Assembly (NCBI RefSeq): GCF_013167455.1
Contig: NZ_CP038328.1
DNA: 64,000 bases
Reading direction: 5' to 3' (one strand)
Source: Escherichia coli O157:H7
GTDB taxonomy: Bacteria > Pseudomonadota > Gammaproteobacteria > Enterobacterales > Enterobacteriaceae
Below are positions 41,770 through 41,968 of this stretch, in pieces. The notes below the pieces were generated by a model. That model did no database searches. It was given only the letters and a program-made list of their open reading frames with translations, and had not been told where the DNA came from. Every line of letters starts with the position of its first letter. Position 1 is the stretch's first letter. The position numbers and the translations under genes were made by a program.

Positions 41770-41795
41770 CGCCCCGTTTGTGGGGCTAATTTCTT
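41770..41795 (+). terminator. rsd terminator hairpin
   Basis: GCCCCGTTTGTGGGGC followed by TAATTTCTT. Confidence 0.6.
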
Positions 41796-41880
41796 GTCGG
41801 AGTGCCTTAACTGGCTGAGACCGTTTATTCGGGATCCGCGGAACCTGATCAGGCTAATACCTGCGAAGGGAACAAGAGTT
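41790..41880 (+). ncRNA. TPP (thi-box) riboswitch in thiC leader
   Basis: Conserved thi-box elements CTGAGA ... ACCTGATCAGGCTAATACCTGCGAAGGGAACAAG upstream of thiC; aptamer boundaries approximate. Confidence 0.85.
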
Positions 41881-41968
41881 AATCTGCTATCGCATCGCCT
41901 TTGCGGCGATCGTCTCTTGCTTCATCCGTCGTCTGACAAGCCACGTCCTTAACTTTTTGGAATGAGCT

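Follow-up and report, generated by a model that had tools for sequence, protein, structure and literature searches.

A conserved promoter-like block at the end of rsd and a GC-rich hairpin ahead of the thiC TPP riboswitch in Escherichia coli O157:H7

The junction between rsd and thiC in Escherichia coli O157:H7 combines the well-studied TPP riboswitch of thiC with a conserved promoter-like block and a stable hairpin. We favour, with a probability of about 70%, a reading in which this known TPP leader is transcribed from a promoter made of TTGAGT and TAATTT at a spacing of 17 bp, with a start near A41768 and the hairpin as the first element of the thiC mRNA. Positions are those of the window, the whole 64-kb stretch of DNA that was analysed. 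A more specific proposal, to which we give belief and doubt in equal measure, is that the native thiC mRNA starts ~19 nt upstream of its published 5' end from the conserved promoter, that it begins with a GC hairpin abutting helix P1 of the aptamer and doubling as a weak rsd terminator, and that none of the in vitro and P_BAD constructs used on the riboswitch contains this hairpin.

The segment 41200-42100 is 100% identical to O157:H7 genomes and is present in 5420 of 5426 complete E. coli genomes. The list of open reading frames and the RefSeq annotation of the identical O157:H7 sequence give the gene order hemE(-), nudC(-), rsd(+), thiC(+), thiE and thiF. The rsd gene, which codes for the regulator of sigma D (41260-41736, + strand, 158 aa), ends with a TGA stop at 41734-41736, and thiC, the first gene of thiCEFSGH, extends from 41969 to 43864 on the same strand. 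They are separated by a spacer of 232 nt, a length shared with K-12, for which the MG1655 coordinate equals 4238068 minus the window position. For comparison, 80 Enterobacteriaceae rsd loci were collected, one genome per species; thiC comes next after rsd in nearly all of them and is gone in two, L065 and L072. An ORF of 52 aa with a TTG start (41794-41952), overlapping the riboswitch, was taken as spurious.

The E. coli thiCEFSGH operon has its leader in this region, and the thiC TPP riboswitch there, already known, is among the founding and best-studied riboswitches. The initial annotation had itself described the element as well known. Elsewhere, the window also has a complete rRNA operon (24930-29940, - strand), four tRNAs (62050-62488, - strand) and Rfam matches above gathering score to sroH (47581-47741, + strand, 201 bits), 'Pseudomonas sRNA P26' (57006-57067, - strand, 74.5 bits), naRNA4 (19976-20053, - strand) and StyR-44 (28052-28160, - strand).

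The aptamer, or thi-box, is matched by the Rfam model RF00059 at 41788-41888 on the + strand, over the full length of the model (1-105 of 105) and with 74.8 bits where the gathering score is 54.3 (E 3e-15). The same riboswitch is annotated by RefSeq in the identical O157:H7 genome. With the aptamer lying on the + strand 81 nt 5' of the thiC ATG, in the leader of a thiamine biosynthesis gene, the identity and the orientation first proposed for the element are upheld, and the Rfam scan suggested as a check scores the whole of the 41790-41880 segment. Helix P1 pairs 41793-41797 with 41872-41876, and CUGAGA occupies 41815-41820. The conserved core, consisting of the P1 closure, the CUGAGA junction and the ACCUGAUC...GGCUAAUACC...GCG helix arm, is complete and invariant in 62 species; in an alignment of 62 distinct Enterobacteriaceae leaders, P1 and P2 are 100% paired and invariant. 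The TCTTGTC that follows the hairpin forms the 5' strand of P1 and opens P2, so that this T-rich run belongs to the aptamer.

Binding of TPP and repression of the downstream gene were published for the K-12 element (PMC5234074), whose aptamer is identical to that of the window. The 'elongated P1' of that paper, pairing residues 1-6 with 91-95, was discarded as a general feature, being not conserved outside Escherichia in the alignment. In K-12, Term-seq places a very abundant RNA 3' end just past P1, at 41882-41883 on the + strand (MG1655 4196186/4196185; Adams et al. 2021, PMC7815308). This end, flagged in that data set as riboswitch-associated and Rho-dependent, implies a stable free aptamer fragment of ~96-115 nt. 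The same K-12 tables contain a strongly bicyclomycin-sensitive site within thiC, at window position 42138 (MG1655 4195930).

The thiC leader has also been a target of insertions. ERIC-like repeats of ~110-125 nt, all in one orientation, occupy three different places of the leader in nine species: aptamer P3 in L014, L017, L021, L030, L039, L040 and L045, the interval between the hairpin and P1 in L026 (about 2020-2180), and the expression platform in L009. They were recognised by their matches to the sequences of primers ERIC1R and ERIC2. The L014 copy folds into a long prolongation of the variable P3 stem, with the aptamer core intact (z -3.75). At gathering score, L014 and L039 escape the Rfam TPP model, and such riboswitches would therefore stay unannotated.

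Between the aptamer and thiC, the expression platform holds three helices. A hairpin at 41891-41912 (+ strand), supported by folding and by two-sided changes at seven of its eight pairs, is paired in 70.5% of cases for the five outer pairs and 93.5% for the three inner ones among the 62 leaders. The 3' strand of the anti-P1 helix, UCUGACAAG at 41932-41940 on the + strand (positions 146-154 in Chauvier et al. 2017), pairs with 41793-41801 and is 99.6% paired in 62 species. The third helix, found by folding and conservation and present in the published OFF-state structure, is a stem-loop at 41935-41973 (+ strand) that pairs 41935-41948 with 41959-41973, thereby enclosing the Shine-Dalgarno GGA (41959-61) and the AUG (41969-71); it is 98.4% paired across the 62 species. 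It accounts for the early suggestion that the thiC ribosome-binding site could pair with upstream sequence. The sequence at 41959-41966 is GGAATGAG, with the thiC ATG at 41969, and the working Shine-Dalgarno is more likely the GGA at 41959-41961, which a distance of 7 nt separates from the AUG.

The anti-P1 helix and the sequestering stem share 41935-41940 and are mutually exclusive. Variation in both is limited to one-sided wobble changes, and the substitutions in the shared strand, 41936 A>G and 41937 C>U, are transitions, after which both alternative helices can still pair. As far as the aligned sequences go, the support for these alternative helices is conservation, without covariation, within a set of closely related species.

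All 17 numbered residues of Chauvier et al. 2017 (PMC5234074) fit the window in one register only, in which +1 is 41787 and the AUG (41969-71) is +183 to +185. For the K-12 element, these authors described a TPP-free ON state with anti-P1, a TPP-bound OFF state that hides the ribosome-binding site and the AUG, pausing of RNA polymerase at 138, 158 and 187, and termination by Rho at C187. The regulatory pause and Rho termination site, C187/U188, maps to 41973-41974 on the + strand. The mechanism should be transferable to the window because the promoter block, the aptamer, anti-P1 and the RBS stem are identical to those of K-12. Following this published work, anti-P1 (41793-41801 with 41932-41940) would leave the ribosome-binding site open without TPP. 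With TPP, P1 would form and 41935-41948 would pair instead with the Shine-Dalgarno and the AUG (41959-41973), a sequestration that would block translation and permit Rho termination at the 41973/41974 pause.

The K-12 riboswitch (PMC5234074) is indeed the same element, with the start codon and the pause site identical as well. Five substitutions separate the two leaders, at 41770, 41776 and 41781 in the flank and loop of the hairpin and at 41900-41901 in the loop of the platform hairpin, and no regulatory helix is touched. The thiM and thiB TPP riboswitches of E. coli belong to the same aptamer class and likewise hide the ribosome-binding site when TPP is bound, whereas the expression platform of thiC is much longer; neither gene lies in this part of the window.

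Upstream of this known element, comparison of the species points to a promoter. We infer that the thiC core promoter consists of TTGAGT (41733-41738), a 17-bp spacer and TAATTT (41756-41761), both on the + strand. The -35-like hexamer contains the rsd TGA stop and sits inside GCTTGAGTT (41731-41739), which is invariant in 75 distinct sequences, the synonymous third-codon position included; the -10-like hexamer reads TAnTTT across species. The remainder of the invariant block 5' of the hairpin comprises TTAACG (41748-53), GTA (41755-57) and TTTACA (41759-64). Of the 77 distinct upstream regions, 76 have the arrangement TTGAnn-17 bp-TAnnnT, and the spacer measures exactly 17 bp in 76/76 matches. 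The single miss, L026, is an artefact, an insertion having moved the block beyond the search window.

The TTGA persists in Trabulsiella although the rsd stop is located 8 nt later, and an Erwinia genome keeps TTGAGC-17-TATGCT with the rsd stop 23 nt earlier. Since it is kept where the stop codon has moved, the stop function does not account for the conservation of TTGA. Neither of the two loci without thiC has an intact copy of the block, which is absent in L065 and decayed in L072. Judged from this pattern of conservation, the promoter-like block is under strong purifying selection. Promoter spacer sequence is normally free to vary; the TTAACG of the spacer (41748-41753, + strand) is nevertheless 96-100% conserved per column, and is decayed in L072, without thiC. 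It may serve a regulator as its site, or act as a determinant in the spacer or in an extended -10.

Two published constructs give this placement a functional side. A terminator-flanked landing pad inserted at MG1655 4196314 stopped the thi operon from being transcribed and caused thiamine auxotrophy (Park et al. 2020, PMC7436927); its site corresponds to window position 41754, 18 nt past the rsd stop and between both hexamers. The riboswitch-free, promoter-only fragment pEc01 (2025 J Bacteriol, PMC12632268) drives a reporter and was called a comparatively strong promoter. It spans ~41676-41775 (~100 bp, the last ~60 nt of rsd and 39 nt of spacer) and is joined to an NcoI site. Together, the activity of pEc01 and the loss of transcription upon insertion at 41754 indicate that DNA up to 41775 is sufficient and that continuity across 41754 is necessary. 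TTGAGT and TAATTT hold the key bases, TTG in the -35 and A at -11 and T at -7 in the -10, but match the consensus at 7/12 positions only and do not pass a strict promoter scan, and the hexamer motif by itself is not rare within the 64-kb window. Because the consensus match is weak, the case for the promoter is built on conservation and on the two constructs. It sustains the proposal, made in the initial annotation, of an overlap between the thiC promoter and the end of rsd, since the -35-like hexamer contains the rsd stop.

Other combinations of the conserved motifs were examined and rejected. With TTTACA (41759-64) as -35, the -10 falls in the unconserved GC 3' arm or tail of the hairpin and the start inside P1. 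TTAACG as -35 would imply GCCCCG as -10, TACATT as -10 has a final T that is not conserved, and a sigma-32-like CTTGAGT...CCCCGTTT has a spacer of 33 nt.

The hairpin, GCCCC-GTTTGT-GGGGC at 41771-41786 on the + strand, is a candidate for a weak terminator of rsd, for the 5'-proximal hairpin of the thiC leader, or for both, pointed out by folding (dG -10.8 kcal/mol, z -2.0), conservation and a terminator-like scan, which matches the stem-loop and the TAATTTCTT that comes after it. Its end is one base short of the Rfam match and 6 nt short of 41793, where P1 begins, and it does lie only a few nucleotides ahead of the aptamer, as had been noticed at the outset. The promoter evidence places the hairpin 3' of the -10 element, inside the predicted thiC transcript and not ahead of the thiC promoter. 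Its conservation is structural, with 38 stems among 67 distinct versions, a mean z of -3.8 against shuffles and 99% of the versions below -2, and it keeps a near-fixed distance from the -10 element across species. These figures come from folds of individual sequences against shuffles, used instead of covariation in the MAFFT alignment, where variable loops fall out of register and pairing is 64.9% only.

Within Escherichia, the hairpin varies only in its loop and in a potential sixth pair, 41776/41781, where the window has G.T, K-12 has A/C, and E. albertii and others have G-C; the five GC pairs do not vary. Another small hairpin hit by the scan, at 41741-41757, was set aside as E. coli-specific and not conserved.

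The initial annotation had named this hairpin the rsd terminator. The stem-loop is real, and the label is less secure. The U-tract is interrupted in the window (UAAUUUCUU) and passes a loose terminator-like rule; it is poor in Salmonella and others, with at most two T in the first 5 nt in 24 of the 67 versions. Good U-runs follow the stem in some genera (Enterobacter, Raoultella, Buttiauxella), and UUUUUCUU is found in some genera. Terminator function at rsd is unproven because the K-12 Term-seq tables, which apply thresholds and differ in this from a direct assay, list no RNA 3' end past the hairpin in MG1655 4196200-4196399, rsd-internal ends being listed (PMC7815308). Should the promoter reading be right, a terminator at this place would act on thiC transcripts too. 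Canonical intrinsic terminators share with the hairpin a GC-rich stem of 5-6 bp, a short loop and a T-rich stretch, here 35 nt past the stop codon. It differs from them in its broken U-tract, which doubles as the 5' strand of P1, in its position 3' of the proposed -10 and in having no in vivo 3' end listed by K-12 Term-seq.

In L065 and L072, without thiC, a hairpin with a good T-tail still follows rsd at the same distance, which favours an rsd-related role. Both loci are Enterobacter-labelled. In L065 (2004-2100), rsd is followed by a canonical terminator and the promoter block is entirely missing; L072 (2004-2100) keeps GCTTGAGT and a hairpin, followed by AT-rich sequence without recognisable thiC-leader homology, which suggests a rearrangement breakpoint just 3' of the hairpin.

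Stabilising stem-loops at the 5' terminus exist in E. coli mRNAs, for instance in the ompA 5' UTR. Under the favoured reading, transcription would start near A41768 and the thiC mRNA would resemble these in having as its first structure this stable hairpin, ~3 nt from a 5' end that is itself only predicted. There, it may shield the 5' end of the mRNA or insulate the aptamer, while the same hairpin and the U-rich start of P1 may serve rsd transcripts as a weak terminator or 3'-end structure. Such a dual use, for the thiC leader and for rsd, is plausible.

The hairpin could instead be purely a protective or insulating 5'-terminal stem-loop of the thiC mRNA, with no terminator role, an option that we regard as possible and on balance doubtful. 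It would suit the missing Term-seq 3' end, the U-tracts that are weak or absent in many genera, the near-constant spacing from the -10, and an Erwinia locus (L082) in which two hairpins lie past the promoter, neither with a U-run. It fits poorly with the terminator-like hairpins that L065 and L072 keep after rsd without thiC, and with the good U-runs of Enterobacter, Raoultella and Buttiauxella.

The start of transcription is where our reading conflicts with the literature. Judged from the -10 at 41756-61, transcription should begin near A41768, 3 nt 5' of the hairpin, while the sole mapped 5' end, the primer-extension +1 of Chauvier et al. 2017 (PMC5234074), is at 41787 on the + strand, ~19 nt away and at the first base 3' of the hairpin stem. 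In that study, the lacZ fusions were P_BAD-driven, the in vitro templates begin with UAA and the native promoter was never tested. A start at 41787 needs a -10 at ~41775-41780, in other words in the hairpin loop, which is variable and never like TAnnnT in the compared upstream regions. When reverse transcriptase is stalled at a stem, the last copied base is exactly one position 3' of that stem, so a stall at the foot of the hairpin would give 41787.

In our view, the published +1 is more likely a reverse-transcriptase stop or a processed end. Against a stop, the hairpin, at -10.8 kcal/mol, does not make a strong obstacle for reverse transcriptase, and against an upstream start, primer extension, which alone has mapped the 5' end of thiC directly, gives 41787. 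The pEc01 fragment does not locate the start, as ~60 nt of it come from the end of the rsd coding sequence and a CCCCC/GGGGG palindrome is restored at its NcoI junction. The SMRT-Cappable-seq, Cappable-seq and Kim 2012 supplements yielded no ligation-based start-site data for the locus, the Chauvier 2017 supplements hold no promoter detail, and a search of the main texts of the papers for the coordinates of the locus returned unrelated numbers only.

Taking 41787 at face value would make the hairpin a plain intrinsic terminator of rsd, outside the thiC mRNA, with thiC starting at 41787 from promoter elements that overlie the hairpin and the 3' UTR of rsd. We hold this to be unlikely. It agrees with the primer extension, with the scan match to 41771-41786 and its tail, and with the T-rich-tailed hairpins after rsd in the two thiC-less loci; it also entails no termination of thiC's own transcripts and accounts for the published elongated P1. 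However, its required -10 would stand in an unconserved loop that never resembles TAnnnT, pEc01 is active without 41776 onward, no K-12 Term-seq 3' end falls at 41962xx or 41963xx, the elongated P1 is not conserved beyond Escherichia, and the TTGAGT-17-TAnTTT block is left without a role.

It is very improbable that thiC has no promoter of its own and depends mainly on read-through from the rsd promoters, with the hairpin as a leaky terminator setting its level: the abolition of thi operon transcription by the terminator-flanked landing pad and the presence of a very strong 3' end after the aptamer, with none for rsd after the hairpin, would agree with it, but the insertion at 41754 also separates the proposed -35 from the -10 and explains the loss equally well, the promoter-like block appears to be under strong purifying selection, and the ~100-bp pEc01 drives a reporter alone, an activity that makes read-through unlikely as the main source of thiC mRNA.

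As a check of the annotation, the analysis confirmed the identity and the orientation of the window, and nothing more. The placement of the thiC promoter across the end of rsd offers an explanation for the auxotrophy observed after insertion of DNA just past rsd, the insertion site splitting the proposed promoter. The value of the finding is modest and mostly concerns riboswitch specialists. Models of the co-transcriptional folding of the thiC riboswitch depend on the exact start of the RNA, and the evidence suggests that the native transcript carries, beside P1, a conserved 5' hairpin omitted from current constructs.
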